A stretch of 55,941 nt of DNA from a virus (lineage: Duplodnaviria > Caudoviricetes), in IMG/VR virus record IMGVR_UViG_3300036715_003593, positions 1 to 55,941 of that record; one strand, 5' to 3'. The stretch's first letter is position 1. Every line of letters starts with the position of its first letter. The translations under genes and the position numbers were made by a program. This document shows, in pieces, positions 3 to 55,941 of this stretch. Under the pieces are notes generated by a model. It worked only from the letters and a program-made list of their open reading frames with translations, ran no database searches and had not been told where the DNA came from.

Positions 3-2741
3 GACTACATGGGTTACATCACCCAAGTGGCTGCCGAAGATCAGTATATAGGATGGGTGTTCAGTGCTTGGCAATTTATTGTCGACGGTACGAATGGCAT
101 TGTCATGCGCCAGTGGGTCAAGTTTGGCGTTGGCTCACCGTTTGTCTATAACGAAGCAACTGTTACGGTAGCGAGTTATCAATCGCTGACCAGTCAGCCG
201 ACATGGACACCGGGTGCGCTGAGCAGCATCGGCATCGGAGGTGATGTACAAGCGGGTGATGCCAATGTCTTTAGCATGACTCACATGAAGGTGTTTAGCC
301 GGTCAACTAAGCCGACTGAAGCTGAAATAAATGCAATCGCGCTGCAAACTTCTGTTGATACTACGGCATGGGGTGATTACCTGATGGAATGGGTATCCGG
401 CGCAGCTGATATATCGGATAGATCAGGCAATGGCAGAAATTTGTCAGTCGGGCTGGGTGCAGTTTCATCTGGTCTTGACGATACAACTTTAGTGCCTGCC
501 GGATATGCGGTCAGACAATCCCCGATCAAAGTTTTTTACGGCGGCACATCTGCCGGCACACTGGCTGCCAGCTTTGAAGTGCCGCCCGTGTCCGGCAATC
601 TCATTGTTGTTGAAGGCGGCTCATCGACAGATAATGGCTCGATTATAATTTCAGACAACAAGGGTAATAATTTTACAGTTATTGTCAGTAATCCAGCGGG
701 CGGAGACCATCCATTTATTGCCTATCTAGTGGTTCCTGCGACATATACCGGAACGTACACGATCACTGCGACAAATCTTGGCGTATCGGCAGGTATGCGC
801 ATATTTGAATGGCAGGGCAATGCGGCTTCCCCGCTAGACTGGGCAGCTACGCCTCGTGATTTAAAAACCTCATTAATCATACCCGCTCCCGATGCAGACA
901 CCTATGCTGGTACACTTATTATCAGCTCGATGGAAACACCCAGTGGCTTTAGTGCTCAGCCTATATATCCGGCAGGATGGTATTGTGATGGCAATGACAA
1001 TGGCGGGAATGGAACTGCTGCTCGCAAAATAACATACGCAGTCGCAACAGAATCAATCTCATGGGCTTTGCAGGCAAGCAGCCCGACGTTTGCTGGCGCG
1101 ATGGTTGGGTTCCGGCCTTATGTTGCCAACCCACCTCCGCTGATTACCCAGCAGCCACAATCGCAGGTCGTGAAAATAGGCGGCACTGCAACATTTAATG
1201 TGATCGACACTTATGCGACTAGTTACCAATGGCAACTTTTCAGCGGGACATGGGGGAATATAAGTGGCGCAACCTCGTCGAGTTATACAACAGGGGCTCT
1301 GACACTGGGAGATGATGGTTCACAGCGGCGTTGTGTGACAACAAATGCATACGGAACGGCAACATCACAGCAAGCTGGGGTAAATGTTCATGCTGCTTAT
1401 AGCCCATGGCGGCGCAGGCAGGCAAGCGGAAAAATAACTAGTAGTAATCTTATTAAATTAAAAGAAGCTGGAGCATCACAGACTGTTGCTGCTAGGTTCT
1501 TTGAAGCGGTCGCGACTGGAACTCAATATAATCAGGCTGTTGCCGGTACACTTTCATTTACCAGTGGTATTGTGTCGCGTGCCACCTCGAAATTTATTAC
1601 GGGCGGATTATCTTTTACTGGAGTCGCCTTAAAACTTACCCGCCGAGCTATAGCAGGCGGCTTGTCATTTTTGGGTACCTTAACCACCAGCCGATTATTC
1701 GTTCGTACAGTTGGCGGTACGCTATCGATGGCTGGTGGTATATCCAAGACTACATCCAAGCTTGCATTCGGCAGCTTGTCATTTACCGGTGGATTAATTA
1801 AGCGCGCTGTAAAATCAATTGCAGGCAGCTTGTCATTTACCGGTGGATTAATTAAGCGCGCTGTAAAATCAATTGCAGGCAGCTTGTCATTTACCGGTGC
1901 GGCGGTAAAGACTACACAAAAAACCATTACCGGCACGCTATCAATATCTGGCGTGCTCGGTGCCATCAAGCAGGCGGGTGGAATGCTTTATACCCGGGCT
2001 GTCGGAGGTGTGCTGGGTTTTTCTGGTGCTAGCACCAAGGCAGTATCTCGTGGTATATCGGGTAGCGTTTCATTCTCTGGCTTGATAGCCAAGAGGTACC
2101 TAAAATCAATACAAGGCGGATTATCATTCACTGGCATCTTGGGCAACATCAAGGCGCGCGTTGTGTCGGTAGGTGGAACGCTTGGGCTTAGTGGTGGAAT
2201 TGGCAAGAAGGTTGGTAAAAAGGTGGCGGGAACTTTAAACCAGATGGGGGTATTGACAAAGCAAACTAGCAAAACTATTGTGGCAAACTTGTCTTTCGCT
2301 GGAGTTCTAACTAGAATAAGAATTCGGTTGCTTTCAATTGGAGGGAGCTTAGGTTTCTCTGGATCCGTTGTGAAAAAAGTGGGAAAAGGTTTGGGTGGAA
2401 CTTTAATCCTTTCCGGAGCAACCGTTAAGAAAATTAATAGAGGCATCATCAGCGGCTTGTCATTTGTAGGGGGAACCTTTAAACTTACTAGCAAGTCAGT
2501 AGTAGGAGGAATATACTTTACTAGCACTCTTTTCAGAATGACCGGTAAAACTGTATCCGGTCAAATTAATTTTATAGGCAATCTAATTACCGCCTTTACA
2601 GGCATGGTAGTTTCTATTGTGAAAAGGATCTTCAAGAGGTCCAGTTTCAAACCTGCCATACTTAGAAAATCGAAATTTGCAGCAGTGGTAGTCCGGAAAG
2701 CTTTTTTCGGTTCCGTTATAAAGAAAACTAGGAGATTCTAA
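3..2741 (+). CDS. Large virion fibre/decoration protein (5'-truncated): LamG-like and beta-sandwich domains, Ig-like domain, C-terminal basic ~18-20 aa beta-repeats
   Basis: Frame open from window start. Ig I-set-like PPLITQQPQSQVV...YQWQ...RRCVTTN; many GxLSFxG repeats. Probably continues the ORF starting at 55675. Confidence 0.7.
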   Translation, partial: DYMGYITQVAAEDQYIGWVFSAWQFIVDGTNGIVMRQWVKFGVGSPFVYNEATVTVASYQSLTSQPTWTPGALSSIGIGGDVQAGDANVFSMTHMKVFSRSTKPTEAEINAIALQTSVDTTAWGDYLMEWVSGAADISDRSGNGRNLSVGLGAVSSGLDDTTLVPAGYAVRQSPIKVFYGGTSAGTLAASFEVPPVSGNLIVVEGGSSTDNGSIIISDNKGNNFTVIVSNPAGGDHPFIAYLVVPATYTGTYTITATNLGVSAGMRIFEWQGNAASPLDWAATPRDLKTSLIIPAPDADTYAGTLIISSMETPSGFSAQPIYPAGWYCDGNDNGGNGTAARKITYAVATESISWALQASSPTFAGAMVGFRPYVANPPPLITQQPQSQVVKIGGTATFNVIDTYATSYQWQLFSGTWGNISGATSSSYTTGALTLGDDGSQRRCVTTNAYGTATSQQAGVNVHAAYSPWRRRQASGKITSSNLIKLKEAGASQTVAARFFEAVATGTQYNQAVAGTLSFTSGIVSRATSKFITGGLSFTGVALKLTRRAIAGGLSFLGTLTTSRLFVRTVGGTLSMAGGISKTTSKLAFGSLSFTGGLIKRAVKSIAGSLSFTGGLIKRAVKSIAGSLSFTGAAVKTTQKTITGTLSISGVLGAIKQAGGMLYTRAVGGVLGFSGASTKAVSRGISGSVSFSGLIAKRYLKSIQGGLSFTGILGNIKARVVSVGGTLGLSGGIGKKVGKKVAGTLNQMGVLTKQTSKTIVANLSFAGVLTRIRIRLLSIGGSLGFSGSVVKKVGKGLGGTLILSGATVKKINRGIISGLSFVGGTFKLTSKSVVGGIYFTSTLFRMTGKTVSGQINFIGNLITAFTGMVVSIVKRIFKRSSFKPAILRKSKFAAVVVRKAFFGSVIKKTRRF
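1770..1899 (+). repeat. 54-bp tandem repeat, 2 exact copies plus a partial third (GSLSFTGGLIKRAVKSIA)
   Basis: ggcagcttgtcatttaccggtggattaattaagcgcgctgtaaaatcaattgca at 1770 and 1824, partial at 1878. Confidence 0.95.
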
Positions 2742-3044
2742 ATGACTTATGATTTGGTAACCGGAGACACTGGATCAACCTTACGTGTTACCTGTTTTGA
2801 TGGGGATACTGGGAATCCTATTAATTTAACAGGAGCAACAGTTAGATTAAACATAGTCGGAGCGACTCCTGGCAAATTAATGACTATCATCAGTGCGCTA
2901 GATGGAACTGTGGAATATAAATTCTTAGCCGATGAAATTGCCGGATCTTTCATGTCGATGGAAGTGGAAATTACAGATTCTCAAGGATCGATTCTCACCT
3001 GTTTGGATCCAATAACATTAGATGTAAGAACTCAACTAGGATAA
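2742..3044 (+). CDS. BppU N-terminal-like small Ig-fold virion protein
   Basis: GDT...PINLTGATV...G.VEY...EVEIT pattern; abuts the upstream stop. Confidence 0.55.
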   Translation: MTYDLVTGDTGSTLRVTCFDGDTGNPINLTGATVRLNIVGATPGKLMTIISALDGTVEYKFLADEIAGSFMSMEVEITDSQGSILTCLDPITLDVRTQLG

Positions 3045-3049
3045 CCAAA

Positions 3050-4255
3050 ATGAAACCAACCATACATATCCACATTAACGTACCGGTCGTTAAGACTCGG
3101 GATGCTGGTTTTTCCGGACCGTTGATTCCTCGTGCAGTGAAGTCGCAATTTAATAACGGGTTTCGTGCAGCTTTGAATTACGAAGGTAGAGAAGTTTGGA
3201 TAAGTCAGTATTCTTGGAAAACAGAAGCTGGGGCAAAGGAAGCCGCTAAAGAAGCCATACCAGCGGTTAGGGTGGGTAGATCCCCAAGTGTGCGCCCATC
3301 CTCAGCTGAAAACGCATCCGCCAAAGATGCCCTCTCCCTAGCTGAAGCCGAGCGCGAACTCAAAGCTGAATTGAAGCTCATCGAAGTCTTCAAGAAGTCC
3401 GGCAAACCTGTTCCGAAGGAAATGATCCAGCGTCAGAAGATGTTGGAGGAAGAAGTCGAGAAGCAGAAGTTTAAGACCGGTGATGCCTTCGCCGAATACA
3501 ACCCTCGCGAAGTAGCCAGGTTGAAGGATCAATTAAAGAAAGCGGACAATGCTCTTTCTTCCGGCAAAATTAATCCAGGTCAGCATTCCAAGTTAGTTGA
3601 GTCGATTGAAAAAGAGCTCAAAGGTTTCAGAGGGGACAAGACTAAGGATACAATTTACCGCTCCCGCTTTCTAAACGAGATCGGTCGCATTAGTCAGAAA
3701 CTTCGCCTCGGTCTCACTGGTGCCGAATTAACAAAGAAGACTGACGGTGAGCTGGAATCCTTGATGAAGGAATTGCAGAAACGTGAAAAGTCATACTCCA
3801 ATGATGCCTCCGTTCCGACCACTTTCTTTGAGGGGTCAGCTGGGCAGTTTAAATCGGAAGTTAAGAATCTCCATCCGGATGCTACTTTTACAGAGTCTCA
3901 GTTCCGCGGAGGATATATGGAAATTACTGCCAAGTCGAAAGGAGAGACGGTCGGTAGTGTTCAGGAGTTGCCCACCGGTAAATTCAGAGGCGGCTTTAGA
4001 AAGGATTTACAAAAGACAAAAGATGCCCTCTCCTCAGCTGAAAACGCACCCGCCAAAGATGCTGAATATCCTCAATGGTTGAAACATGCCAAGAACTCTT
4101 TGTCTCCAACAGACTTTGCAAAAGTGTTGCATGTCATGCAGACCCAAGGTGAAAATGCTGCGATGGTTATGACTAAGAAAATGCTTACCGGTGATGCCTA
4201 CTCAAACTATCCATCTTTCAAGGAAGAGGCCAGACGGAAAAAATCAGGTGACTAA
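3050..4255 (+). CDS. Putative internal-head polyprotein with IHIHI tag and periodic [TSA]-x-D|A junctions
   Basis: 401 aa Lys/Glu-rich ORF in the head module; junction Asp at residues 18, 93, 145, 200, 252, 325, 337, 382 and 401. Confidence 0.7.
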   Translation: MKPTIHIHINVPVVKTRDAGFSGPLIPRAVKSQFNNGFRAALNYEGREVWISQYSWKTEAGAKEAAKEAIPAVRVGRSPSVRPSSAENASAKDALSLAEAERELKAELKLIEVFKKSGKPVPKEMIQRQKMLEEEVEKQKFKTGDAFAEYNPREVARLKDQLKKADNALSSGKINPGQHSKLVESIEKELKGFRGDKTKDTIYRSRFLNEIGRISQKLRLGLTGAELTKKTDGELESLMKELQKREKSYSNDASVPTTFFEGSAGQFKSEVKNLHPDATFTESQFRGGYMEITAKSKGETVGSVQELPTGKFRGGFRKDLQKTKDALSSAENAPAKDAEYPQWLKHAKNSLSPTDFAKVLHVMQTQGENAAMVMTKKMLTGDAYSNYPSFKEEARRKKSGD

Positions 4256-4402
4256 ATTCTCAAAACTATCTCCAAGGCTAACATTGCCAAGAAGTTCAGA
4301 GAGGGAGACTGGGAAGCTATTCCAGTCTTGACTAAGTCTGGTTACTAGGGAGTTCGTGACCTAGCTTCAGGTAAGTGATTTACAGTTGTGGTGACAGAAT
4401 AA
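4256..4402 (+). pseudogene. Possible decayed terminal module of the polyprotein
   Basis: In-frame continuation ILKTISKANIAKKFREGDWEAIPVLTKSGY*GVRDLASGK*FTVVVTE* fills otherwise empty space. Confidence 0.4.
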
Positions 4403-4506
4403 ACAGTGGCATCAACATGGAAGGTGCTAAACGTCCCTGATCCATTTAGACTGCCCTTGGCAGAGAAACATTAGCCTCGATCAATATATAGAGAAAAGGA
4501 ATAGAC

Positions 4507-4941
4507 ATGAAAAAAATGCTTTTAGTATTAGCCTTGTTGTTTGTATCACTGAGTGTCGCAATCGCTGCTCCAACCTATCCATTCTCAAACCCGACTTACA
4601 TCCCCACCGCAGTTAGTGCCCCAGTCGCTTATACCGCTCCTGGCACCTACATCTTTACAGCCAACGGCATTTCAACTCTATCCATGCGAATTACCGGTAC
4701 ATGTACCTCTTTGTCAGGGGTGTTGCAAGGCACTAACGATGATACCAACTGGTCTTCTTTGACATTGCATCCAGTAACTGCTTCTGCCACAACAACCACC
4801 CCAGTCGTAGCAGTAGCTGCTGTCGGGTTTTGGCGGGCAAGTGTTGCAGGCTTTAAATCGGTACGGCTTAACATTACCGCATTGACAGCCACTTGCACGG
4901 TTGCCATGGCAGGTACACAAGCATACGGGTTAATGGAATAA
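4507..4941 (+). CDS. Hypothetical beta-rich protein with a Sec-type signal peptide
   Basis: MKK + hydrophobic stretch + AIA/A; RBS aagga. Confidence 0.7.
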   Translation: MKKMLLVLALLFVSLSVAIAAPTYPFSNPTYIPTAVSAPVAYTAPGTYIFTANGISTLSMRITGTCTSLSGVLQGTNDDTNWSSLTLHPVTASATTTTPVVAVAAVGFWRASVAGFKSVRLNITALTATCTVAMAGTQAYGLME

Positions 4942-4945
4942 CCAC

Positions 4946-6349
4946 ATGGCTACTCCGGCACGCAGACTGTTTCATACTGTTGAGCGCATCAGTGCAAGAC
5001 AGAGCTTGACACAAGAAGGCTACTTACTTTGTGAAGGTGTCCCAATCGCCCGTACTGGCGAGATGCTTTACGGGGGATCAGAGTTGGAAGGGGCAGACGG
5101 CAAACCGGTTGTTACCCCAAACGATGAAGGTCTTGTACGTATTGCCAGAGACGCAGATGAAGTTTTCCGTGCTGAAACGATTGCCAGTTTCAATGGAAAA
5201 TCAGTATCTGATGATCACCCCGAAGATGGCGCAATTGCTCCAAGCAATTGGCAAGAACGTACTGTTGGTATTGTACTCAATCCTCGCAGAGGTGAAGGAG
5301 AACAGCACGATCTTTTGTTGGCGGACTTGTTGATTACGGTTCCCTCAGCAATTGAGGCAGTACGTTCTGGCAAGCGCGAAGTAAGTTGTGGTTATGAAGC
5401 TGACTACGAGGAGGTGGATGTCGGACAGGGTAGACAAAAGAACATAATTGGTAATCATGTAGCGTTAGTCGAATCGGGTCGCTGCGGCTGGCGTTGTGCT
5501 ATCGGCGATCGTAAATTAGAGGAGAAACAAATGAGCAAGAAATTATCTTGGCTCGACCGTGCTAAAGCAGCTTTCCATTCGAAAGATGAAGAAGGCTTCA
5601 ATAAGGCAATGGAAGAAGCTAAAACTGGTGACGAGCTGGGTAGTGAGGGTGAAGAAAACGAGCAGCATATTCATATTCATATGAATAGCAATGGATCAAC
5701 TGATCCAGTTGTCCCAGCATTAGGTGACGAAGATCCTGAAATCAAGAACAATGACGACGATGAACTCGCTACTCATATTGCTCAGAACTCAGCGGAACAC
5801 GAGGCTTTTGCTTCCCGCCTCGCTGCTATTGAAGAGCAATTAGGTATCGGCGCGACTGACGAGATGCCAAGTGAAGAAGTTGAAGATGCTTTGGAAGCTG
5901 AAGCTCCAGTGGGCACAGGTGACAAAGCTCGAAAGTCGACCGACTCTGCATACATGGCTGATAGCTACAAGAATACAGTTGCTCTTGCTGAAATCTTGGC
6001 ACCTGGTATCAAAGTTCCGACATTCGACTTCGCGGCTAACCCGAAGAAAACCTTCAAGGATGTTTGCGGCCTACGCCGTCAAGCATTGGATGCAGCTTAT
6101 GCGCACCAGGATACACGCAACATGATCGAAGACATTATGGGTAGTAAAACCATTAATTTCAAGAACATGTCGTGTGATGCAGTGCGTACGGTTTTCAAAG
6201 CCGCAGGCTCAATCAAACGTGCTTCCAACAACGATGCTGCTCGCGGCAAAGGTGCTCTGGATACACAAACCAACCAACCTGCCAAGAAGCCAACGCTGCG
6301 TGATATGAACAAAGCAGCTGACGCCAAATGGCTTGATAAACAACATTAA
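4946..6349 (+). CDS. Prohead maturation protease/scaffold (DUF2213-like)
   Basis: EGYLLC..VPIARTG, DDHP, GKREVSCGY, IIGNHVALV..GRCG..CAIGD motifs; acidic scaffold-like C-terminal half. Confidence 0.85.
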   Translation: MATPARRLFHTVERISARQSLTQEGYLLCEGVPIARTGEMLYGGSELEGADGKPVVTPNDEGLVRIARDADEVFRAETIASFNGKSVSDDHPEDGAIAPSNWQERTVGIVLNPRRGEGEQHDLLLADLLITVPSAIEAVRSGKREVSCGYEADYEEVDVGQGRQKNIIGNHVALVESGRCGWRCAIGDRKLEEKQMSKKLSWLDRAKAAFHSKDEEGFNKAMEEAKTGDELGSEGEENEQHIHIHMNSNGSTDPVVPALGDEDPEIKNNDDDELATHIAQNSAEHEAFASRLAAIEEQLGIGATDEMPSEEVEDALEAEAPVGTGDKARKSTDSAYMADSYKNTVALAEILAPGIKVPTFDFAANPKKTFKDVCGLRRQALDAAYAHQDTRNMIEDIMGSKTINFKNMSCDAVRTVFKAAGSIKRASNNDAARGKGALDTQTNQPAKKPTLRDMNKAADAKWLDKQH

Positions 6350-6896: not shown

Positions 6897-7958
6897 ATGA
6901 TGACTTATGATGGAAATCGCGTTGTAGACGCATTGGGTACACAAGCTGGTAAGCAATTGCCAGCCGGTATGGTAACCCGTGATGGTAAAACTGTGGACTC
7001 CACAGGTGCCTTCCTGGTGGGTGAGTTGGAGCGTCTGGATCAGACGTTGCACATGCCTTTGGCTGCTGTTACTTTTGCGCGCGACATTGACTTGCGCGAA
7101 GACGTAACAATCGCAGACGAAGCATCCAGCTTCACCTTATCAAGCTTTGGTTCAGCTGGCGGTTTGGGTATAGGTAACGGTATCGGTAATGGCAAAGCTT
7201 GGATCGGTAAGACAACAGACCAGATTACCGGCGTGAGTGTTGACATCGCCAAGATTCCAAATCCTTTGGATCTGTGGGGTATGGAATTGAAGTATACTAT
7301 ACCTGAAATCGAAAGTGCAGCACGTCTGGGTCGCCCTGTTGACCAGCAAAAGTTCGAAGGTATGCAACTGAAGCACCAGATGGATATCGATGAACAAGTG
7401 TACATTGGTGACACAAGTAAGAAAACTAAAGGTATGGTTAACCATACTCTGGTTACTCCTACCGCTCTACCGAATGGTGTTGGTGGTTCAGCAACATGGG
7501 CAACAAAAACGCCTGACGAAATCCTGGCTGACGTAAACCTGATGTTGGTGACTACATGGAAGAACTCAGCATTGGCAGTCATGCCAGATCGTCTGTTGTT
7601 GCCTCCTAACCAGTTCGGCTATATTGCTACTCAAAAAGTATCATCTGCTGGTAACCTATCTATCCTGAAATATATCCTGGAAAACAACATCCTGGTAACA
7701 TCAGGTCAAGGTAAGTTGAATATCTTCCCCCTCAAGTGGCTACAAGGCGCTGGTGTGGGTGGTACATTGGGCACACCGGGCAACGATCGCGCAGTTGTGT
7801 ACTTGAAAGAGTACCAGCGCATTCGTTATCCAATGACAATGTTGCAACGTACTCCAATCCAGTACGACAGCATCTACCATAAGACGACTTACTATTGCCG
7901 TCTTGGTGGCGTCGAATTGGTCTATCCTGAAACAATGGGTTACTATGACGGTCTGTAA
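6897..7958 (+). CDS. Major capsid protein (DUF2184-like)
   Basis: GAFLVGELERLD, W..KTPDEILAD, YYCRLGGVELVYP motifs; 353 aa. Confidence 0.88.
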   Translation: MMTYDGNRVVDALGTQAGKQLPAGMVTRDGKTVDSTGAFLVGELERLDQTLHMPLAAVTFARDIDLREDVTIADEASSFTLSSFGSAGGLGIGNGIGNGKAWIGKTTDQITGVSVDIAKIPNPLDLWGMELKYTIPEIESAARLGRPVDQQKFEGMQLKHQMDIDEQVYIGDTSKKTKGMVNHTLVTPTALPNGVGGSATWATKTPDEILADVNLMLVTTWKNSALAVMPDRLLLPPNQFGYIATQKVSSAGNLSILKYILENNILVTSGQGKLNIFPLKWLQGAGVGGTLGTPGNDRAVVYLKEYQRIRYPMTMLQRTPIQYDSIYHKTTYYCRLGGVELVYPETMGYYDGL

Positions 7959-7977
7959 CAAGTAGTGTGGTACATGA

Positions 7978-8002
7978 AGGGGTTGGGCAACCTACCTCTT
8001 TG
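7978..8002 (+). terminator. Possible weak intrinsic terminator after the MCP gene
   Basis: aggggttgg-gcaa-cctacctc hairpin followed by ttt. Confidence 0.35.
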
Positions 8003-8041
8003 TGTAACATATTAAAACAACCCCCTTTAGGAGAAACAAAA

Positions 8042-8473
8042 ATGTCTAAAACCGTAACAATGATCCTAGCTACTAAAGTAATTATTACTGACAATGGGCA
8101 CGTTCCTCATTCCTTTGGTCCTGGCATTTGCGAAGTGCCAGCTGAGTTTGCTGATCATTGGTATATGAAGGCTCATGGCGCGGTAAAGTATGACCCCGCT
8201 GCTAAAGCTGCTGAACTGTTGAAAGAAGCTGCAGCACTTGAAGAAGCTGCCAAGATTGAAGCTGAGAAAGCTGCCAAGATTGAAGCTGAGAAAGATGCCA
8301 AGGTTGAAGCTGAGAAAGATGCCAAGGTTGAAGCTGAGAAAGATGCCAAGGTTGAAGCTGAGAAAGATGCAGCAGAAAAAATGGCTCCACTGTCAACAAG
8401 TACAACGCCGACAGTGGAAGCAACCTCAGCAACGGTTGCTGCACCTGCTTCTCAACCATGGGCAAAGAAGTAA
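8042..8473 (+). CDS. Head-associated hypothetical protein with EAEK(A/D)AK repeats
   Basis: ATG 8042 with ggag RBS; A.HWY..AH motif; directly downstream of MCP. Confidence 0.7.
   Translation: MSKTVTMILATKVIITDNGHVPHSFGPGICEVPAEFADHWYMKAHGAVKYDPAAKAAELLKEAAALEEAAKIEAEKAAKIEAEKDAKVEAEKDAKVEAEKDAKVEAEKDAAEKMAPLSTSTTPTVEATSATVAAPASQPWAKK
8249..8368 (+). repeat. Five tandem 24-bp repeats (gccaagRttgaagctgagaaagMt)
   Basis: Read directly from the sequence. Confidence 0.95.
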
Positions 8474-8479
8474 TTTATC

Positions 8480-8950
8480 ATGACTGCCACCTCCGCAACT
8501 TTGCGAGCTCACTTTCCAGAATTCGCCAACGTTATCGACTACCCGAATGCTCAGATCGAGTTCTGGTTAAGCATTGCGGTACAGATGCTTAACGCGGGTC
8601 GATGGGGTACGATGCTGGATGCTGGTGCCGAGCTATATGCTTGCCACCATATTGCCTTGGAAGCTCGAGATATGGTAACGGTAGCTGCTGGTGGATCACC
8701 TGGACAGAATACCGGACCGGTTAATTCCAAATCAGTAGACCGAGTGTCCATCGGCTACGATACCGGTGCGGCTGCGGAAGAACGTGGCGGGCATTGGAAT
8801 TTGACCACATATGGAACTCGGTATCTACGTTTCGCAAGAATGTTCGGGGCTGGCAGTTTACAGGTTGGAGTAGATGGACCGATTCCACCATTGAGTGCGT
8901 CTTCAGCTTGGGGCACACCTTGGTATGTGGCACCCAATCCGAGCAACTGA
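8480..8950 (+). CDS. Head-tail adaptor (DUF4054-like)
   Basis: FPEFA...YP, SKSVD.VS..YD, WNLT.YG motifs. Confidence 0.8.
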   Translation: MTATSATLRAHFPEFANVIDYPNAQIEFWLSIAVQMLNAGRWGTMLDAGAELYACHHIALEARDMVTVAAGGSPGQNTGPVNSKSVDRVSIGYDTGAAAEERGGHWNLTTYGTRYLRFARMFGAGSLQVGVDGPIPPLSASSAWGTPWYVAPNPSN

Positions 8951-9435
8951 TGGCTAAGCCGCTCGAGTACGATGGGCTTCCGGATTTGCTGAGAAACATA
9001 AAGAAGCTGACCAAACAGGAAGTTTTAATAGGTGTACCGTCTGATCACGCTCACCGTAAAGATGAAGATGAAGTTTTAAATAATGCTTCGTTGGCGTACT
9101 TGCATGAACATGGTTCACCTGTTAATAACCTACCAGCTCGTCCGTTTTTAGAGCCAGGTATTAAGGTTGCGAAAGATAAGATTTCGAAACACCTCGGTTT
9201 GGCCGCTGAAGCAAGTCTCAGTGGGCAGAAGGAAAAAATGGGTCAGCAATTAGTATTGGCTGGACTAACTGCTCAGAATGCGACAAGGGCGAAGATCAAT
9301 TCAGGGGTGGAGCCAGCCTTAGCACCTTCCACGATTGCTGCGAGGCAACGAAGAGGTAGAACCGGAACAGTGCCTTTGATCGATACTGGTCAATTGCGAA
9401 ATTCAATTATATATGTAGTCAAGGAGAAAAAGTAA
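8950..9435 (+). CDS. Neck/tail-completion morphogenesis protein
   Basis: HEHG...N.PARPFL.PG and PLIDTGQLRNSI.Y motifs; TGATG overlap. Confidence 0.75.
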   Translation: MAKPLEYDGLPDLLRNIKKLTKQEVLIGVPSDHAHRKDEDEVLNNASLAYLHEHGSPVNNLPARPFLEPGIKVAKDKISKHLGLAAEASLSGQKEKMGQQLVLAGLTAQNATRAKINSGVEPALAPSTIAARQRRGRTGTVPLIDTGQLRNSIIYVVKEKK

Positions 9436-9632
9436 TGGCAAAGATACATGTGCATGTGCATACAAACGATGCGTTCGATGAAGCTGCTTCTCAAGCCCTC
9501 CAACTTATTAACAAAGCCGGTGATATCTTGTACAAAGCTAATTTGCAAAATACAAAAGATCCAAAAGTGGCCGGAAGAGAAGCAGTAATCCGGTCACTTC
9601 TCGAAGCCAAGACTCTCGCTCAAAAAGTTTAA
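9435..9632 (+). CDS. Small helical protein with IHVHVH-TND tag (putative internal head protein)
   Basis: aaggag RBS, TAATG overlap; N-terminus MAKIHVHVHTNDA. Confidence 0.7.
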   Translation: MAKIHVHVHTNDAFDEAASQALQLINKAGDILYKANLQNTKDPKVAGREAVIRSLLEAKTLAQKV

Positions 9633-13515: not shown

Positions 13516-14989
13516 CCTCAGAGAGTATCTGGTTAACTTAGGCTTCAAGGTCGATGAAAAGACTTTGAAGAATTTTGTTGCCGGCACAAAAACTGCAGCA
13601 AAGGGTGTTGCCACTTTGGTAGCAGCTGTCGGCGGTGCTGCGCTGGGTGTAGCCACAGGTGTGGCTGTCTTTGCTGCCAATCTCGAAGACCTATATTTCG
13701 CTGCCAAGAAAGCCGGATCTACTGCCCTCAACCTCAAAGCCTTTGGGCAAGCCTCCCAAAACTTCGGTGTGTCGGCAGATGAAGCCCTCGGGTCTGTCCA
13801 AGCTCTTGCTAGATTCATGCGTGAAACTCCGGGTGCTGAAGGCTATCTAGCATCTCTTGGCGTACAGGCGCGCAACGCCAATGGTGAGATGCGAGACACT
13901 ACCGATATCATGCAAGATGTCGGTAAAGAGCTCGCTAAGAAACCGTATGCTTTATCTAAACAGTATGGCGACTTGCTTGGAATAAGCGAAGATACTTTGC
14001 GAGCAGTTATGACAGGTGACTTTGCTGCCGCGATGGCGAAACAAAAAGGCATTCTGAAAAATTCAGGTTTCAATAAGGCCGCAGCTGATGCCCACAAATT
14101 CATGGTGGGTTTACGTAATCTTCAAACTCAGCTTGAGGTGTTTGCCATTCAGGTTCAGGATGCCCTTCTCAAGAAGTTTGGAACTAGCCTCGATAAAATA
14201 GGAGTCTGGTTCGAAAAGAACGGACCGATGATGGCGGCGCGAATAGCTGATGTGATTAAAGGTTTCCTAGAACTGGCTGAGAAAGTTATTCCGGCTATCG
14301 GTTGGTTGGTTCAGAAATTCATGGATCTGGATAACGCAACGGATGGCGCCAGCACCAAGGCGGCTCTCGCGGTGGCAGCTTTCACCTTGTTGGGCGGAGC
14401 TTCAGTAGTATCCGGCATTATGGGTGTAGTGAAAGCAGTGGGCATGCTTGGTGGAGCCTTGATGTCCACTGCTACGGCAACTTCGGCCGCTGGGATAACT
14501 TCTTCTCTAGGTGCTCTTGCCAAGTCAGCTGGCTTGCTCGGAGCAGCAGCAACAGTGGGCTATGCCATAGGCACAGCCATTAATGATGCTTTCATAAGCG
14601 GGACCGACTTTGGCGACTGGATAGGTGAAAATGTCGCCAAAGTGTTAGCTTTCTTTGGAAATGATGAAGCTCAAGCAGCCTTGGATGGGGGAAAGAAAAA
14701 GGCTCCGTCGACCCTTGAGAATATTGCGGCCTTGGACGGAGGAAAGAAAAAGTCTCAGTTGACCCTTGAGAATATTGCGGCCAATTGGGGAAAAAGCGGA
14801 GCTGATTTGACCCATGAGGCATATAGTCCAGCTATGCCTCATGGGTCTTCAAAAAGCGCTACCGTTAACCAAACCACTAATATCAATATAAACGGAGGCG
14901 AAGCAGCTTCAACTGGTAAAGCTGTTGCGAGATCTCAGGATCGAGTTAATGAAGATATCGTCCGTAACCTCAGCCTGAGGGTATATTAA
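13505..14989 (+). CDS. Tape measure protein
   Basis: L.EYLV.LGF.VD start; Ala/Gly-rich helical sequence; NQTTNINING near the C-terminus. Confidence 0.85.
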   Translation: MATNLREYLVNLGFKVDEKTLKNFVAGTKTAAKGVATLVAAVGGAALGVATGVAVFAANLEDLYFAAKKAGSTALNLKAFGQASQNFGVSADEALGSVQALARFMRETPGAEGYLASLGVQARNANGEMRDTTDIMQDVGKELAKKPYALSKQYGDLLGISEDTLRAVMTGDFAAAMAKQKGILKNSGFNKAAADAHKFMVGLRNLQTQLEVFAIQVQDALLKKFGTSLDKIGVWFEKNGPMMAARIADVIKGFLELAEKVIPAIGWLVQKFMDLDNATDGASTKAALAVAAFTLLGGASVVSGIMGVVKAVGMLGGALMSTATATSAAGITSSLGALAKSAGLLGAAATVGYAIGTAINDAFISGTDFGDWIGENVAKVLAFFGNDEAQAALDGGKKKAPSTLENIAALDGGKKKSQLTLENIAANWGKSGADLTHEAYSPAMPHGSSKSATVNQTTNININGGEAASTGKAVARSQDRVNEDIVRNLSLRVY

Positions 14990-15528
14990 TGGGACTATTC
15001 ACATTGTTTTCCACTCCCGCTAATGCCATTGGAGAATTGATTATTCCAGCAACATTGGAAGAAAACCACAATGACTCGTTGACCATTACTGAGCACCCTG
15101 TGGAATTCGGCGCGCCAATAACCGACCATTCTTATAAGAATCCTCCAGAATTGATAATGAGGTGTGGTTGGACGAATAGCAGTTTTGCTGCTATAAAGGC
15201 CATTTTTTCATCTCTCTTAGCGGATGGAGATTTGCCTGGCGATAATTACATTGATAGCATCTATTTCAAGCTGTTGAAAATGCAAGAAGATCGTTTACCC
15301 ATTACTGTTCAGTCCACCAAACGGTGGTATAAAAATATGATGATCACAGGTCTTCAGGTTACTACTGATGACAAGACTTCTAATATTTTACTGATTGTGA
15401 TTACTTTAAAGAAGATCAATATTGTAAAAACACAAGCGACTGTTTTGCCTCCAAAGGAGAACCAAAAAAATGCCGCCGATACAAGTTCACCCACTAGTTC
15501 CGGACAAAAACAACTGGTAGCTAAATAA
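14989..15528 (+). CDS. Baseplate/tail-tube initiator (Dit-like)
   Basis: EE.H.D.L.ITEHPVE.GA.I.DH.Y..P motif. Confidence 0.75.
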   Translation: MGLFTLFSTPANAIGELIIPATLEENHNDSLTITEHPVEFGAPITDHSYKNPPELIMRCGWTNSSFAAIKAIFSSLLADGDLPGDNYIDSIYFKLLKMQEDRLPITVQSTKRWYKNMMITGLQVTTDDKTSNILLIVITLKKINIVKTQATVLPPKENQKNAADTSSPTSSGQKQLVAK

Positions 15529-29504: not shown

Positions 29505-30440
29505 TTAAAAAAGTCCCAGTTGGTCGGGAATAAATTTTGGCTCAGATCCTTTTTCTTCCGAAACCATTTTACCAAGTTTATCGAAAGCGAACATGTTATA
29601 TGTCCAACGCCCGAGATAAGTTTCTTGCATACGTTCCAAGTCAACCCCTTCGTTAGTTAATTTGTCCTCAACTGCTTGACGTAAAATGGGAGGCAAGGTA
29701 GTTATATGTTGCCCTTCCACCTTTCGTTGCGGAGATTGGTTTGAAACGTTAATGACTCTGGCTTCCGGTAATAGGAGCATTCCACCCACTCTCGCAATCT
29801 GAACCCATGAAGACGAGTCTACAGAGTACCATGGGTAGCGCCGCATCAAAATTGGCGTGGTTAAGCCGAAGCCATGGACTTTGAGTTTGGGTCTACCTGA
29901 ACCATCGGTTAAATATTTTCCCCAGATTTCATCCAGCCATAAAAGTAATTGCGGAGTAGACTGAGCTACCATTCCTCCCAAGGTTATGTACTTATAGTTC
30001 TTAATGTAGTGCTCAAGGTAACGGGGATCCTCGCCAAAGTGATAGCACGGCAAAGGTCGGACCCCCATCGATTCCATATGAAGCTGATTCTCATAGGTAC
30101 CTTGGGCATCCCCGATCGCGTCCATCACGGAAGCCAAAATATCCCCATCGTCTTTCCGGATTATGTCATCATTCTTTTTGATATAATCACAATAAGCCAC
30201 CATGTCAACTTTGGCACCCAGTGACCAAGCAGAGAACGCACCACTGTCTAGGAAGACCTGAATTCCGTCCGCCCGAATCATGTCAACCGATCTTTGTCTT
30301 CCAATGTAGTGGTAACTCTCCAAAAGGTTACCAGCGCCGGCACAGAGACGTTGGTATTTTTCGTTTTCAGTTAGACGTTCCCAAAGGGTGCCCCCAATAC
30401 AGAAACCAGCAGTATAGATTCCGGCATTATAAAGTTTCAT
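29505..30440 (-). CDS. dpdA: DpdA-like DNA-guanine transglycosylase (TGT fold)
   Basis: FLDSGAFS, LGGMV, VHGFG, WYSVDSSSW motifs; lies in the queCDE/folE cluster. Confidence 0.75.
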   Translation of the reverse strand: MKLYNAGIYTAGFCIGGTLWERLTENEKYQRLCAGAGNLLESYHYIGRQRSVDMIRADGIQVFLDSGAFSAWSLGAKVDMVAYCDYIKKNDDIIRKDDGDILASVMDAIGDAQGTYENQLHMESMGVRPLPCYHFGEDPRYLEHYIKNYKYITLGGMVAQSTPQLLLWLDEIWGKYLTDGSGRPKLKVHGFGLTTPILMRRYPWYSVDSSSWVQIARVGGMLLLPEARVINVSNQSPQRKVEGQHITTLPPILRQAVEDKLTNEGVDLERMQETYLGRWTYNMFAFDKLGKMVSEEKGSEPKFIPDQLGLF

Positions 30441-31026
30441 GTTTTACCAGCCTGATAATATTTCCATCTATTATTTTATCATATCCACGGTGCTTATGTT
30501 TATCACTTAGAACACTTTTGATCGCTTTAAAATAAGAACGATCCGGCAAGAAAACAGTTTTAAGGAAAGCATCTAAATCCTCAACTGTGCCACCTGAATC
30601 TTGAAAAAAGTCCAAGGTTATCTGTCGAATTGATCTTGGAGGATTTCCAGAAAAATACAACTCTCTGGATGCGAAATCTGCTTTCAATCTGTTGATGGCA
30701 CTTTCCGCTAACCCATATGTCATCTTCGGTAACAATCGTTGGTATTGGTCAGGGGCATCTGAAAAATAATCATCCGATCCAAACCAGTAACCTGAGCCTT
30801 CTGGATATTCTCCGAGCAATCTGTTTTGTGCCCGATGATCATAAATCTCGATTTGAGTTTCGGGAAGAATGAAACCGTAGACAGCTGACCGAATCCATAA
30901 AGTAAAACCCTGAATAGCGGCCAGCTCATCCAAATGTCGAAACATCTTCGAACCTGAATAAATTTCCCGAGCTGTGCTACCCTCAATTTTTGTTTTGGGG
31001 CAGGTTATAAGTAGATTGGGTTTCAT
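30427..31026 (-). CDS. DUF6884/YaaA-like protein
   Basis: ITC.K.K...AREIY.G..F...W.RSA.YG.I.P...I..YD pattern. Confidence 0.55.
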   Translation of the reverse strand: MKPNLLITCPKTKIEGSTAREIYSGSKMFRHLDELAAIQGFTLWIRSAVYGFILPETQIEIYDHRAQNRLLGEYPEGSGYWFGSDDYFSDAPDQYQRLLPKMTYGLAESAINRLKADFASRELYFSGNPPRSIRQITLDFFQDSGGTVEDLDAFLKTVFLPDRSYFKAIKSVLSDKHKHRGYDKIIDGNIIRLVKHETL

Positions 31027-31940
31027 TTACGCTTCGGTATCAACGACATGAACTCTGCGCGAGTTGCTGCCTCAGCCATGAAGAGACCTCGCATCGAAGA
31101 TGTTGTGGTCATTGTGCCATGCACACGAGCACCGCGAGAGCTCATACAAGTATGTTCACATTGAACTACTACAGCTACCCCTCGCGCTTCCAGATGCTCT
31201 GCCAAGGCATCTGCGATTTGATTAGTCAAACGTTCCTGAACCTGAAGGCGGTGGCTGAATGCCTTTACCAACTTTGGTATCTTGGATAGACCAACAATGC
31301 GACCATTTGGTATGTACGCAACATGGGCAACTCCGTGGAAACGAGCCATGTGGTGCTCACAGAAACTTTCCACAGGGATGCTATCGATAATAATCATCTC
31401 ATCACAACCTTCTGCACCGTCCGTGAAGGTCTTGAACAAGCCAGCGATGTCGGTGGTATAACCATCGAACCATTCCTGATATGCCTTGGCTACTCGCTTC
31501 GGGGTTTCTAGTAAGCCTTCACGGTTTGGATCCTCGCCGATGAACTGAAGCAGGCGACGAATATTGTCTTCGATGCTGCTTTCTGAATCGCCTTCCCAAG
31601 GAAACACCACCCAATCATATGCCTCTCTGTAAATCGGATCGGTCTTATCGATTAGAGCATAAAATGATTTGCCTGGATACATATCGCAATAACGTTCCAT
31701 AGTTGCGCCGGAGTCAATAATGTCGTCGACAAAAATGTCCGCCTCTTCTGGGGTGAGCGCAATCCTGATGTCCAGGTGCGTATAGTTAGCAGCAGCTATC
31801 ACCGCATATAAAGCAGGTATACCACCTCGAGGAATTGCGTAAGCTCGAATATGATCTTTGCCATTCATCTGGATCTTGCTGGCAACGATTACCGCTAGAT
31901 CCATAATATCGTTGTGGTTTAAAATTGTTTTTGCGGACAT
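31023..31940 (-). CDS. folE: GTP cyclohydrolase I fused to an N-terminal purine phosphoribosyltransferase-like domain
   Basis: REGL.ETP.RV, S.CEHH, GLSK, QVQERLT, H.CM..RG; N-terminal IPRGG, VDDIIDSGAT, WVVFPWE. Confidence 0.9.
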   Translation of the reverse strand: MSAKTILNHNDIMDLAVIVASKIQMNGKDHIRAYAIPRGGIPALYAVIAAANYTHLDIRIALTPEEADIFVDDIIDSGATMERYCDMYPGKSFYALIDKTDPIYREAYDWVVFPWEGDSESSIEDNIRRLLQFIGEDPNREGLLETPKRVAKAYQEWFDGYTTDIAGLFKTFTDGAEGCDEMIIIDSIPVESFCEHHMARFHGVAHVAYIPNGRIVGLSKIPKLVKAFSHRLQVQERLTNQIADALAEHLEARGVAVVVQCEHTCMSSRGARVHGTMTTTSSMRGLFMAEAATRAEFMSLIPKRK

Positions 31941-31942
31941 GG

Positions 31943-32368
31943 TTATTCCTTTATAAATGATGCTGCACATTTGCGAGTTTCTTCGAATCGCACCGAGATA
32001 AGAACTGCCCCTGTTCCAGCCAATTGAACTGGTCCAACCACTTCGACCAAATACTTGGCGAGATTTTCTGCGGTAGGATTGAAAGGGACTATTACTGTCC
32101 CGACCGGATCGATCTCCGGCAAGGTCTTTGACCATGGATCATTCTCCCACAAAAGGAATTTATGATCCCAGTTATCTTCGAGCCATTGAGCCAGCAACGT
32201 TTTCATCACCGAAAAGTCAAGAACCCGCCCTACTGAATCCAAACCATCGGAAGTAATTGTAAAATGAACACGGCCGTTATGACCATGCATCATGCTGCAT
32301 TTTGATTCGTGTTGGTATACCCGATGACCGTACGAAAAGTCATGATATCTATCTGCGGTGAAAGTCAT
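31943..32368 (-). CDS. queD: 6-carboxytetrahydropterin synthase
   Basis: GHR...KC..MHGHN, DF, WDH, PTAENLA, EET motifs. Confidence 0.9.
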   Translation of the reverse strand: MTFTADRYHDFSYGHRVYQHESKCSMMHGHNGRVHFTITSDGLDSVGRVLDFSVMKTLLAQWLEDNWDHKFLLWENDPWSKTLPEIDPVGTVIVPFNPTAENLAKYLVEVVGPVQLAGTGAVLISVRFEETRKCAASFIKE

Positions 32369-33138: not shown

Positions 33139-33139
33139 T

Positions 33140-33847: not shown

Positions 33848-33868
33848 AAGATCTCCGTAGGTGTATCC

Positions 33869-33896
33869 ATTATAACACAATCTCCTTGGTACCCAA
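33869..33896 (-). promoter_or_regulatory. Extended -10 sigma70-like promoter for the que/dpd operon
   Basis: TGTGTTATAAT on the - strand just upstream of the queE RBS. Confidence 0.5.
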
Positions 33897-51804: not shown

Positions 51805-53274
51805 ATGGCTAAACGTGACATTACCAAGACTGTAGACAAAGCTTTCGCAACTGACGAAGCCGCACGCCTTGCTGCCACAGTCAATGATTCGTTCAACAAC
51901 TTCGCACAGAAGATGGGTGTCGGTGCAGACAACCCTCTTTCCACTTCTTCTTACGGCTTCAATCCAGTTACGCGCGTTCGTACCTTGCTCGAATGGATCC
52001 ATCGCGGCTCATGGGTGGGCGGAGTAGCGGTTGACGTAATTGCAGATGATATGACTCGCGAAGGAGTCGATCTGGACGGTGAGCTCGACCCTGATGATAT
52101 TTCCCGTTTGCACCGCGAAGCCAATCAACTGAACATCTGGGCACAGGTTCGCGATACTGTTGCCTGGTCGCGTCTTTATGGTGGATGTCTGGCTGTCATG
52201 TTGATAGACGGTCAGGATTCTTCTACCCCCTTGCGATTAGATACCATCGGCAAAGGCGATTTCAAAGGCTTGCTAGTTTTAGACCGTTGGATGGTTGAAC
52301 CGTCCATGGGTGATCTGGTAACAGAATACGGTCCTCATTTAGGTCTGCCAAAATATTACAAAGTCACTGCGGATGCGCCAGCCTTGCCCCGCATGAAGAT
52401 TCATTATTCCCGTTGTATTCGATTGGAAGGCGTTCGCTTGCCCTATTGGCAACGGGTCATGGAAAACCTTTGGGGTATTTCCATTTATGAGCGTATATAT
52501 GACCGCATGCAAGCCTTCGATTCAGCAACGACTGGTGCAGCCCAATTGGTTTACAAAGCATACATCCGGACTTACAAGATCAAGGATATGAAAGAGGTAG
52601 TTGCTGCCGGTGGTCCTGCTTTGGATGGCTTAGTTAAGTATACAGAAATGATGCGTCGCTTCCAAGGCGTGGAAGGTATTACCTTAATGGACGCCGATGA
52701 TGAGTTCGAAGGCCATTCACATACCGCCTTCTCTGGCTTGTCTGATGCCTTGACCCAGTTCGGCCAACAGCTCTCCGGCGCGCTTCAAATCCCGCTAGTT
52801 AGATTGTTTGGCCAATCTCCTGCTGGCTTCAGCACCGGTGAAACAGACCTACGCAATTATTACGACAACGTCAAGACTCAGCAGGAGCGAGAACTTGGCG
52901 TACCACTGGTTACCATTTTCCGTGCCTTGGCGGCATCTTGTGATATCAAACTTCCCGACGATTTCGGGGTAACCTTCCGATCATTGTGGCAACTGAGTGA
53001 TACTGAAAAATCGACTATTGCTCAAACTACTTCCGGTTCGATTCTGGCTGCTGAAAGTGCTGGTATAATTGATCATGCGACTGCGCTCAAAGAGTTGAAA
53101 CAATCAAGTCGTATCACTGGGGTGTTTACTAATATCACTGAAGAGATGATCCAGGATGCTGAAGGTGAAGAAGCTCCGGACGCAAGCGACCTGATTGTTA
53201 ATCCTCCGGTTGATCCAGCTCAGAAGATTGGGGATACTCGGTGGCAACGTATTCTTAAAAAGGTAAGACTATGA
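51805..53274 (+). CDS. Portal protein (DUF1073-like)
   Basis: VD.IA.DMTR, W.RLYGG, H.SR, IPLVRLFGQSPAG..TGE.D..NYYD. Confidence 0.88.
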   Translation: MAKRDITKTVDKAFATDEAARLAATVNDSFNNFAQKMGVGADNPLSTSSYGFNPVTRVRTLLEWIHRGSWVGGVAVDVIADDMTREGVDLDGELDPDDISRLHREANQLNIWAQVRDTVAWSRLYGGCLAVMLIDGQDSSTPLRLDTIGKGDFKGLLVLDRWMVEPSMGDLVTEYGPHLGLPKYYKVTADAPALPRMKIHYSRCIRLEGVRLPYWQRVMENLWGISIYERIYDRMQAFDSATTGAAQLVYKAYIRTYKIKDMKEVVAAGGPALDGLVKYTEMMRRFQGVEGITLMDADDEFEGHSHTAFSGLSDALTQFGQQLSGALQIPLVRLFGQSPAGFSTGETDLRNYYDNVKTQQERELGVPLVTIFRALAASCDIKLPDDFGVTFRSLWQLSDTEKSTIAQTTSGSILAAESAGIIDHATALKELKQSSRITGVFTNITEEMIQDAEGEEAPDASDLIVNPPVDPAQKIGDTRWQRILKKVRL

Positions 53275-53486
53275 AAAACACACATATCCATGTTCACGTT
53301 GGAACGAAAGATGGCGACAGAGAAGATTCTTCCAATATCACTTCTTTGAAAGGTGATTTGGTTCGGCTTGCTTCAAAAATATCCGCCTTGGGTTCTACCA
53401 CTTCAAATCCGCAATTGAAAAAAGCCTGCAAGGGGGCAGAGCAGAAAGTGGATGAAGCACGGTCGCTTCTCCATGATGCCCAATAA
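53271..53486 (+). CDS. Small helical protein with HIHVH-VGTKD tag (putative internal head protein)
   Basis: ATGA overlap with portal; N-terminus MKNTHIHVHVGTKD. Confidence 0.7.
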   Translation: MKNTHIHVHVGTKDGDREDSSNITSLKGDLVRLASKISALGSTTSNPQLKKACKGAEQKVDEARSLLHDAQ

Positions 53487-55674: not shown

Positions 55675-55941
55675 ATGAGCAATAGCCTTTTACTGGGCGC
55701 TGGAGGTAATAACAACATACTCCAGCTATCCGCCACTGTACCGGACATCACTGCTGGAGTGCTGCTGACGTGCTGGACAAAAAATCCTGTTCAATCTGGA
55801 TATCCCTACTCGGCGCCTAATAAGTACCCATTCACCGTAAAAGGAACTAACTGGGGCATCTGGTGCGTGACGGGGAATATGTTTGCGACGAACTCGCCGA
55901 CAGATTCCTATTTCAACCAGAACGTAACTGTGCTCGGCATA
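55675..55941 (+). CDS. N-terminus of a large virion protein (3'-truncated), probably continuous with 3-2741
   Basis: ATG 55675; 89 open codons to the window end. Confidence 0.6.
   Translation, partial: MSNSLLLGAGGNNNILQLSATVPDITAGVLLTCWTKNPVQSGYPYSAPNKYPFTVKGTNWGIWCVTGNMFATNSPTDSYFNQNVTVLGI

Follow-up and report, generated by a model that had tools for sequence, protein, structure and literature searches.

The prohead protease of phage T4, gp21, cuts after Glu in the motif I/L-x-E, and the corresponding protease of the phiKZ-like jumbo phages (phiKZ, 201phi2-1 and SPN3US) cuts in S/A/G-x-E within large, dedicated proteins of phages of 200+ kb; we know of no shared tag and no shuffling of cassettes among the inner-body proteins of the latter. 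Short terminal peptides also address proteins into shells of the HK97 fold, as is the case for the cargo-loading peptides of encapsulins and for the C-terminal segment of the HK97 protease. According to the accessible part of one source, the internal proteins of T4 are diverse, counter defences and have only a capsid targeting sequence (CTS) in common (PMC3012670). In the accessible part of another, the T4 ADP-ribosyltransferase Alt is packaged in the head and injected, and domains of the LPD type occur in proteins that are packaged in the head or moved with the DNA and are processed into units (PMC5512222). Here we describe a gene in a DNA stretch of 55,941 nucleotides (virus record IMGVR_UViG_3300036715_003593), called the window below, which is a nearly complete contig of about 56 kb from an uncultured myovirus. 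The open reading frame (ORF) 3050-4255 on the plus strand encodes a protein, P0001, which starts with an HxHxH tag and continues as a row of cassettes bordered by Asp (P0002-P0011 are its relatives, and L-numbers stand for related loci). We read P0001, with a probability of roughly 0.6, as a late head-module polyprotein that is targeted to the capsid and cut after Asp by the prohead protease.

Judged from the sequences, the system works like the T4 internal proteins and the head proteins of phiKZ-like phages and echoes the idea of polyvalent proteins, but it is not a member of any of them by descent. With T4 IPI-III and Alt it shares a short conserved N-terminal peptide, the putative address, which is borne by diverse and otherwise unrelated small head-module proteins and has a consensus site for the protease behind it, and also basic cargo, one of which is an ADP-ribosyltransferase, and a protease of the same fold. 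It differs in lacking any sequence relation to them (P0001 matches 0 PHROG families and, in Pfam, no peptidase family and nothing above the cut-off, the sole sub-threshold match being DUF6611 with 17.7 bits against 27), in the HxHxH address, in the predicted Asp at P1, in the several cargoes per chain and in the presence of the tag on protease and scaffold. The phiKZ-like phages resemble it in having head-internal proteins with multiple cuts, a gp21-like protease and an acidic P1. Polyvalent proteins, as far as the accessible text describes them, carry several effector domains on one polypeptide, with proposed co-delivery with the DNA and processing, and are large, with known enzymatic domains and an MPTase of their own that is proposed to cut them (PMC5512222), whereas P0001 has cassettes of 5-8 kDa that match no known family, and the capsid protease would make its cuts in trans at explicit joints. 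Set beside the range of two to 15 conflict-related domains used for polyvalent proteins, P0001 has 6-8 cassettes, none of a described family, and domains of the LPD3, DUF5710 and ADP-ribosyltransferase kinds are confined to other tagged proteins. Effectors fused to MuF also enter the head by means of a head-protein address, and tagged ORFs often lie beside a MuF-like gene, but the address here is a strand of 5-9 residues plus a cleavage site and not a MuF domain. Likewise, the C-terminal tag of the split proteases described below recalls the encapsulin peptides and the HK97 segment, but the sequence is another one, and the tag would be removable by the predicted cleavage and is common to scaffold, protease and cargo. 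What appears to be new is an address of the HxHxH type, its occurrence on protease and scaffold as well, a protease with a predicted preference for Asp, and exchangeable cassettes of 5-8 kDa in one chain that would be cut in trans.

We hypothesize that the N-terminal HxHxH tag, as a beta-strand, would bring P0001 into the assembling prohead, where protease and scaffold carry the tag too, and that a gp21/assemblin-like serine protease of the DUF2213 type would cut after Asp in [T/S/A]-x-D/[A/S/G/T] (the slash marks the predicted cut), a rule drawn from sequence statistics. Cutting would free the tag, about six basic cassettes of 5-8 kDa and two scraps, and the pieces would stay with the DNA and probably be ejected into the host, by analogy with the T4 internal proteins. 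Comparison of the relatives shows that the cassettes are swapped between phages, apparently by recombination at joints sharing short identical DNA. The assignment of the cutting to the DUF2213 protease is well supported and in our opinion quite probable, whereas ejection and action in the host, for which we lean on the analogy, are possible rather than probable.

The gene itself, which had been proposed in a preliminary description made from the letters of the window, is real by all signs, with an ATG start, AGGA as a plausible ribosome-binding site 9 nucleotides upstream, and 401 amino acids ending in KKSGD before the stop. It sits in the head module on the strand of the head genes, and the order is tail-fibre-like genes, a 100-amino-acid ORF, P0001, a 144-amino-acid ORF, the 467-amino-acid DUF2213 protein, a cement protein and the major capsid protein (PF09950). 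Divided at its joints, P0001 consists of the following pieces, where pI is the isoelectric point and pLDDT the predicted local distance difference test score of the AlphaFold2 model:

3050..3103, plus strand: N-terminal tag or propeptide MKPTIHIHINVPVVKTRD, amino acids 1-18, ending at the first T-R-D/A; the same tag is found in P0002-P0004.
3104..3328, plus strand: module A, amino acids 19-93, basic (pI 9.9), with a low-confidence fold, ending AKD/A, family Q; a homologous block in P0009 is preceded by KKTGD/A.
3329..3484, plus strand: module B, amino acids 94-145, a helical hairpin and the most widespread cassette, ending TGD/A; pLDDT 64-90 over 91-140.
3485..3649, plus strand: module C, amino acids 146-196/200, helical, with the double site RGD/KTKD/T; pLDDT 66-74 over 151-190; found at other positions in P0002, P0003, P0007 and L134:5908-6435.
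3650..3805, plus strand: module D, amino acids 201-252, ending SND/A, with no relative found and no module family; pLDDT below 50.
3806..4024, plus strand: module E, amino acids 253-325, a helix plus a beta sheet, ending TKD/A; pLDDT 64-88 over 261-310; relatives in P0005 and P0011, and as a whole protein in P0008 (79 amino acids, no tag).
4025..4060, plus strand: a 12-amino-acid scar, amino acids 326-337, made of the start of B plus the end of A, with the direct DNA repeats D1 (97%) and D2.
4061..4195, plus strand: module G, amino acids 338-382, helical, ending TGD/A; pLDDT 79-83 over 341-380.
4196..4255, plus strand: remnant module H, amino acids 383-401 plus the stop, ending on SGD; an internally deleted copy of the 68-amino-acid module of P0004.

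All nine sites that the preliminary description had listed are found at the residues it gave, and the joints of P0001 are non-random. Of its 16 Asp residues, eight have Ala as the next residue, where 1.5 would be expected (p about 5e-5, 20,000 shuffles). For [TSA]-x-D-[AT] the expectation is 0.55 and the count is 8, which 0 of 20,000 shuffles reach. D277 (HPD/A), inside module E, fits D/A as well and is a chance match, because the relatives P0005, P0008 and P0011 have Thr there. The point equivalent to D196 (GFRGD/K) is the end of P0003 (GFRS and stop) and reads YRAED/A in P0007, and module C probably ends at D196 besides D200. P0001 stops precisely on SGD, where P0004, with the same module, goes on SGD/AIGETF, and distant relatives of high GC content such as L003 keep the amino-acid motif of the joints with different codons. 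The segments between the joints had been taken for separate, basic mini-domains, a view that holds for the larger ones, which have pI values of 8.3-9.9, and fails for the pieces of 12 and 19 amino acids, which are recombination scars. In the first scar, the DNA at 4031-4062 matches the last part of module A (3299-3330) with 97% identity, and the 12 residues begin as module B begins. Identical DNA of 13 nucleotides encodes both TGD/A joints, and the pattern suggests that cassettes were moved by recombination at microhomology in the joints. In the AlphaFold2 model, the four confident blocks (about residues 93-143, 151-193, 262-309 and 339-382) each lie within one module, and all eight joints fall in, or at most one residue from, stretches with pLDDT below 50. 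The model had 0 matches at E <= 0.001 among viral predicted structures, and module E had no usable feature match in the ESM Atlas, its structural neighbours being generic small sheets.

The relatives bear the cassettes out. Three were found in a scan of 5.8 billion clustered proteins, and phmmer, run exhaustively over 1.84 billion representatives, gave 11 non-self matches, nine of which start with an M..HIHIH-like tag; the untagged two are P0010, a fragment whose full form in L134 has the degenerate tag MTIHIYVN, and P0008, the stand-alone module E. Where the window has tag-A-B-C-D-E-(scar)-G-H, P0003 has tag-x-x-B-X-C, P0004 tag-x-B-x-H-X and L134 tag-C-B-Y, so that B stands before C in the window and after it in L134:5908-6435, as it does in P0007. 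Module G, the end piece of P0004, lies within the chain in P0002 and P0003, and module I, the last cassette of L109, is a stand-alone tagged protein of 72 amino acids in L098. When module B was aligned from eight proteins, both borders were Asp in all eight and the outer flanks were unrelated; the collinear match of P0001 and P0004 halts at GD145/GD118 and picks up again at TGD/AYSNYPSF, and the phmmer match of P0001 with P0011 spans residues 256-376, that is, into module G. The window and L001 have proteases that are 99% identical and different sets of cassettes. No homologues came from searches for shorter (30-219 amino acids) and longer (703-2005 amino acids) forms, which is weak evidence; other routes led to short or stand-alone forms (P0008, L098 and L122). 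A tblastn search of P0001 against 50,697 phage records gave no match, cultured phages included. Comparison of these proteins shows an architecture of cassettes bounded by Asp. As support for its view, the preliminary description had named segments that related phages have in shuffled order or singly after an identical kind of tag, and such segments are found.

What that description missed is that the tag is common to the protease, the scaffold and two further small proteins of the window. Apart from ORF 3050-4255, the tagged features are:

4946..6349, plus strand: DUF2213 prohead protease (amino acids ~10-190) fused to the scaffold, 467 amino acids; PF09979 at 1.7e-45, phrog_530 'head maturation protease'.
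5666..5683, plus strand: internal tag HIHIHM of that protein, amino acids 241-246, in a disordered linker between TGD229/ and STD253/.
9435..9632, plus strand: second N-tagged protein, 65 amino acids, starting MAKIHVHVHTND/A.
53271..53486, plus strand: third N-tagged protein, 71 amino acids, starting MKNTHIHVHVGTKD/G, between the portal gene and the MuF-like gene; also present in L001.

The tag was surveyed in about 160 related loci. Of 129 distinct full-length proteases, 81 have it internally, and for 25 of the 81 the fetched locus also contains an ORF with the tag at its N-terminus, against one of the 48 tagless proteases (Fisher p 2.6e-5). The motif was found within the first 14 amino acids of 43 distinct non-protease ORFs, against 11.4 expected. 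Nearly all tagged candidates (48 of 52) are on the strand of the head genes, and 44 of these 48 have an Asp at most 13 amino acids after the tag, a count for which none of the 52 candidates was set aside. In this group of 44, Ala stands at P1' in 21 and any of A/S/G/T in 32, and Thr stands at P3 in 21. On the opposite strand, one of the four candidates has the Asp, and none has P1'/P3 residues of that type. The spacing from tag to site is 1 to 13 amino acids, counted without 10 ORFs that were removed by eye (ORFs from L026, L053, L113, L128, L159 and L161, and four others on account of their first residues). The slots in which tagged genes recur are those between portal and MuF, between MuF and protease, between capsid and DUF4054, and after DUF4054. 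In three loci in which protease and scaffold are split (L141, L150 and L154), the protease ORF ends in IHLHVHL just before the stop (IHLHF in L150), and the scaffold ORFs have an internal tag of their own, HMHVHL/HIHLHM. The internal protease tag is also found in prophages of the cultured bacteria Xanthobacter sp. VTT E-85242 and E-85239 and Kaistia dalseonensis B6-8 (L172, L174 and L177). Since the tag is common to protease, scaffold and variable small proteins and is bordered by a putative protease site, it is best read as a prohead address, and that it is an address to the capsid we consider probable. Designed peptides of the IHIHI type form strand contacts, as far as the accessible portion of that literature tells, and a tentative and rather doubtful extension would be that the HxHxH strands are a co-assembly code of the whole clade, in which protease, scaffold and any cargo with the strand would pair through faces of alternating His and Ile, possibly with metal, and be swept into the prohead; an Asp-specific gp21-like protease would then erase the code and dice the cassette chains into a changeable set of small, injected proteins.

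One could instead suppose that HxHxH is not an address to the capsid and serves the protease, either as an exosite that recruits substrates or as an inhibitory propeptide, and that the cutting perhaps takes place outside the prohead. The variable spacing between tag and site would suit this, as would the sites beside the tag in the protease's own linker and a tag on a homologue of Neck1/tail-completion proteins in L024. Split proteases that end in the tag are, however, hard to understand if the tag is a handle on substrates and easier if it is a signal for co-localisation, and capsid proteases of the gp21-like fold act inside proheads in the known cases, which makes this explanation very unlikely.

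By family and fold, ORF 4946-6349 is a real capsid protease. In an AlphaFold2 model built with 75 sequences (mean pLDDT 83.7, with residues 231-267 disordered), residues 11-193 superimpose on T4 gp21 (5jbl_B) with Z 11.1 and a root-mean-square deviation of 2.6 A over 129 residues in VIA-align, which also gives Z values of 8.8 to 5.5 for herpesvirus proteases; Foldseek alone gave nothing at E <= 0.001, only weak E-values. H91, S147 and H171, which are candidates for the catalytic residues, are invariant in the 75 sequences, and so are R68, R114 and R179. The spacing of 56 between H91 and S147 is similar to that between H85 and S140 of T4, named in the accessible part of PMC12991175, a likeness of spacing alone. 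It is a speculation that an Arg forms an Asp-binding pocket. DUF2213 is widespread, with 241 matching phage records that include phages of Klebsiella, Vibrio, Acinetobacter, Burkholderia and Pseudomonas, and the profile of the protease-scaffold protein matches gp24 of Pseudomonas phage Pa193 (E 4e-14; PDB 9b40 chain G, deposited as 'scaffolding protein'). The main text of the Pa193 paper never uses the word 'protease', its accessible parts give no cleavage site, and gp24 may be an unrecognised fusion of protease and scaffold.

Three separate lines of sequence evidence point to the joint as a probable protease site. Over 123 distinct fusions of DUF2213 protease and scaffold, the scaffold half has 837 T-x-D against 217 expected from shuffles (3.9x, median 7 each), with Ala at P1' 254 times and Ser 179 times, while T-x-E (0.56x) and S-x-D (0.73x) are depleted. 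Tagged (3.85x, n=76) and tagless proteins (4.15x, n=47) show equal enrichment, and it extends to cultured phages, with seven T-G-D over about 220 residues in Hafnia phage yong1. Two of the split proteases, L141 and L154, have KTRD/S upstream of the C-terminal tag. Among 105 distinct major capsid proteins, T-x-D stands directly before the conserved xxT[FY]D box in 67 and another x-x-D in 8, and 14 start at the box, including that of the window:

6897..7958, plus strand: major capsid protein (PF09950), starting at the MTYD box, with a second candidate site VTRD29/G (nucleotides 6975-6983).

The leaders ahead of the box vary in length and sequence, and the N-terminus bounded by T-x-D looks like a removable leader. 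Bordetella phage IFTN9, Burkholderia phage Magia and Acinetobacter phage Ab105-1phi are cultured relatives with such a leader, in which the predicted cut follows T-R-D. The preliminary description had linked P0001 to the neighbouring protease on position and general precedent; the link is now strengthened by T-x-D in scaffold and capsid proteins, by the gp21-like fold and by the tag on protease and scaffold.

The same data may be read in another way, with P0001 as an accessory scaffold or core protein that is loaded by its tag, cut at T-x-D and expelled or degraded as fragments during maturation, so that it would aid assembly and not be cargo for the host. P0001 is mostly helical, lies two genes upstream of the protease and has the T-x-D punctuation of the scaffold linkers, and the scaffold bears the same tag. 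Its content is not conserved, however, as the differing cassettes of the window and L001 beside almost identical proteases make clear, its pieces are basic whereas the scaffold linker is acidic, and sister tagged proteins have enzyme or effector domains, all of which makes a role in assembly unlikely.

As for these sister proteins, a tagged protein of L036 matches ADPrib_exo_Tox at 1.2e-24, tagged proteins of L003 and L145, directly after MuF, match LPD3 at 8e-30, and DUF5710 is likewise found among the tagged proteins, at 1e-16. In both L036:9013-9696 and L037:7901-8584 a tagged protein of 228 amino acids with an ADP-ribosyltransferase domain is encoded directly after the MuF-like gene, and it is likely an Alt-like packaged enzyme. 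By analogy, the cassettes of P0001 would be head-internal proteins that travel with the DNA, and a role against defences may be proposed from that analogy and from the ADP-ribosyltransferase and LPD3 domains of the other tagged proteins.

Several observations weigh against the polyprotein reading. The identical stretches of 13 and 32 nucleotides at joints also fit a role in recombination and nothing else, and T/S-x-D-A may in part reflect the preference of helix N-caps. The AlphaFold2 model of P0001 is weak (mean pLDDT 57, 52% of residues below 50), and, although no confident block crosses a joint, low-confidence helices cross three of the eight (93, 200 and 325). Segments of BLAST matches start at most 3 amino acids from D/A in 32 of 106 cases, against 13% expected, and end there in 32 of 137, against 10.6%, which is about twice as often as for random placement and speaks for cassettes bordered by Asp, but the test draws on related, non-independent sequences and is supportive only. 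The folded protease domain is enriched too, in T-x-D (1.95x) and in T-x-E (2.47x), and the T-x-D signal is thus partly inflated, because conserved structural motifs such as PTFD contribute to it. As to the tag, 56 of the 81 tag-bearing proteases are without an N-tagged ORF in the fetched locus, many such loci being short; the closest cultured relatives, IFTN9, Magia, Ab105-1phi, YP3, yong1 and GZ7, are tagless, and N-tagged ORFs are likewise missing from the ~20-kb loci of the prophages in Xanthobacter and Kaistia. The L024 protein mentioned above (14555-15115), a homologue of the Neck1/tail-completion-like ORF 8794-9435 of the window, begins with MPNHIHMHLHLHTD and is a misfit for interior cargo. 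In the literature, judged by titles and the starts of abstracts, we found no work on cleavage by DUF2213 or in DUF2184 proteins. Nor did we find, in the papers that could be searched, an account of the tag or of the cleavage rule, although subscription papers and supplements, e.g. on the virion proteomes of PB1-like and Bcep781-like phages, may hold N-termini. No single paper with both HIHIH and 'capsid' was found in the text that could be searched, and HIHIH-like strings were, among the matches listed, unrelated to phages.

Some of these points would suit a protein that is never cut, a chain of several domains in or on the head whose x-x-D-A joints are flexible linkers, helix caps or sites of recombination at the level of DNA. 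The microhomology in the joints (the repeats of 13 and 32 nucleotides), the recombination scars and the low-confidence helices over three of the joints are all in its favour. It does not account for a motif that is kept in distant high-GC relatives with other codons (L003), that comes after the tag in 44 of the 48 tagged ORFs, that bounds the leaders of capsid proteins and lies ahead of the C-terminal tag in the split proteases L141 and L154, nor for the end of P0001 on SGD where the same module of P0004 has SGD/A. We therefore consider an uncut protein quite unlikely, and prefer the polyprotein that is cut by the prohead protease.

The region was also read in other ways. As RNA it gave 0 Rfam matches in 2500-5000, and the 251-nucleotide gap 4256-4506 shows no excess of folding over shuffled sequences (z -1.05); promoter-like and terminator-like matches were at or below the shuffle expectation, and the opposite-strand ORFs of 64-66 amino acids within the gene of P0001 are without support. 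The ends of the contig do not overlap, and the tail-fibre ORFs at them are not in frame together, so a circular join was rejected as well. Other genes of the window encode a terminase, a portal, a MuF-like protein, a tail sheath, a baseplate, a DNA polymerase, a primase and a 7-deazaguanine cluster.

Some neighbours deserve mention in their own right. The 144-amino-acid protein (4507-4941, plus strand) directly upstream of the protease has a signal-peptide-like N-terminus, which is odd in a head module, and has no Pfam or PHROG match; related loci conserve it at this position (31 ORFs). Many GGLSFTG-type repeats mark the large tail-fibre-like ORFs (55675-55941 and 3-2741, plus strand), which occupy an unusual slot between the MuF-like gene and the head genes, and in L134 this slot, ahead of the polyprotein gene, is filled by an ORF of 708 amino acids. 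After the capsid gene follows an ORF of 168 amino acids (7967-8473, plus strand) with four tandem AEKDAKVE-like repeats (phrog_2619, function unknown), whose slot in relatives is taken by a short protein (gp08 of Magia, gp09 of IFTN9). On the minus strand, at 29505-33880, lie queuosine/7-deazaguanine genes (TGT-like, GTP cyclohydrolase, QueC-like and QueE-like), which suggests modified DNA.

If the polyprotein reading is true, the widespread DUF2213 prohead proteases would have their first cleavage rule (after Asp, in T-x-D/A or S), and the mature forms of capsid, scaffold and cargo proteins would be predictable from sequence. The tag would be a second system of capsid address, unrelated to the CTS of T4 and short enough to be fused to foreign proteins for the loading of phage heads, and should the co-assembly code hold as well, it would be a natural and programmable system for packaging proteins, with plug-in cassettes. 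It would also follow that a tailed phage can hold the proteins it injects in a single polyprotein with exchangeable cassettes, which would be a compact way to vary the cargo for host takeover and against defences, and a source of many small proteins.

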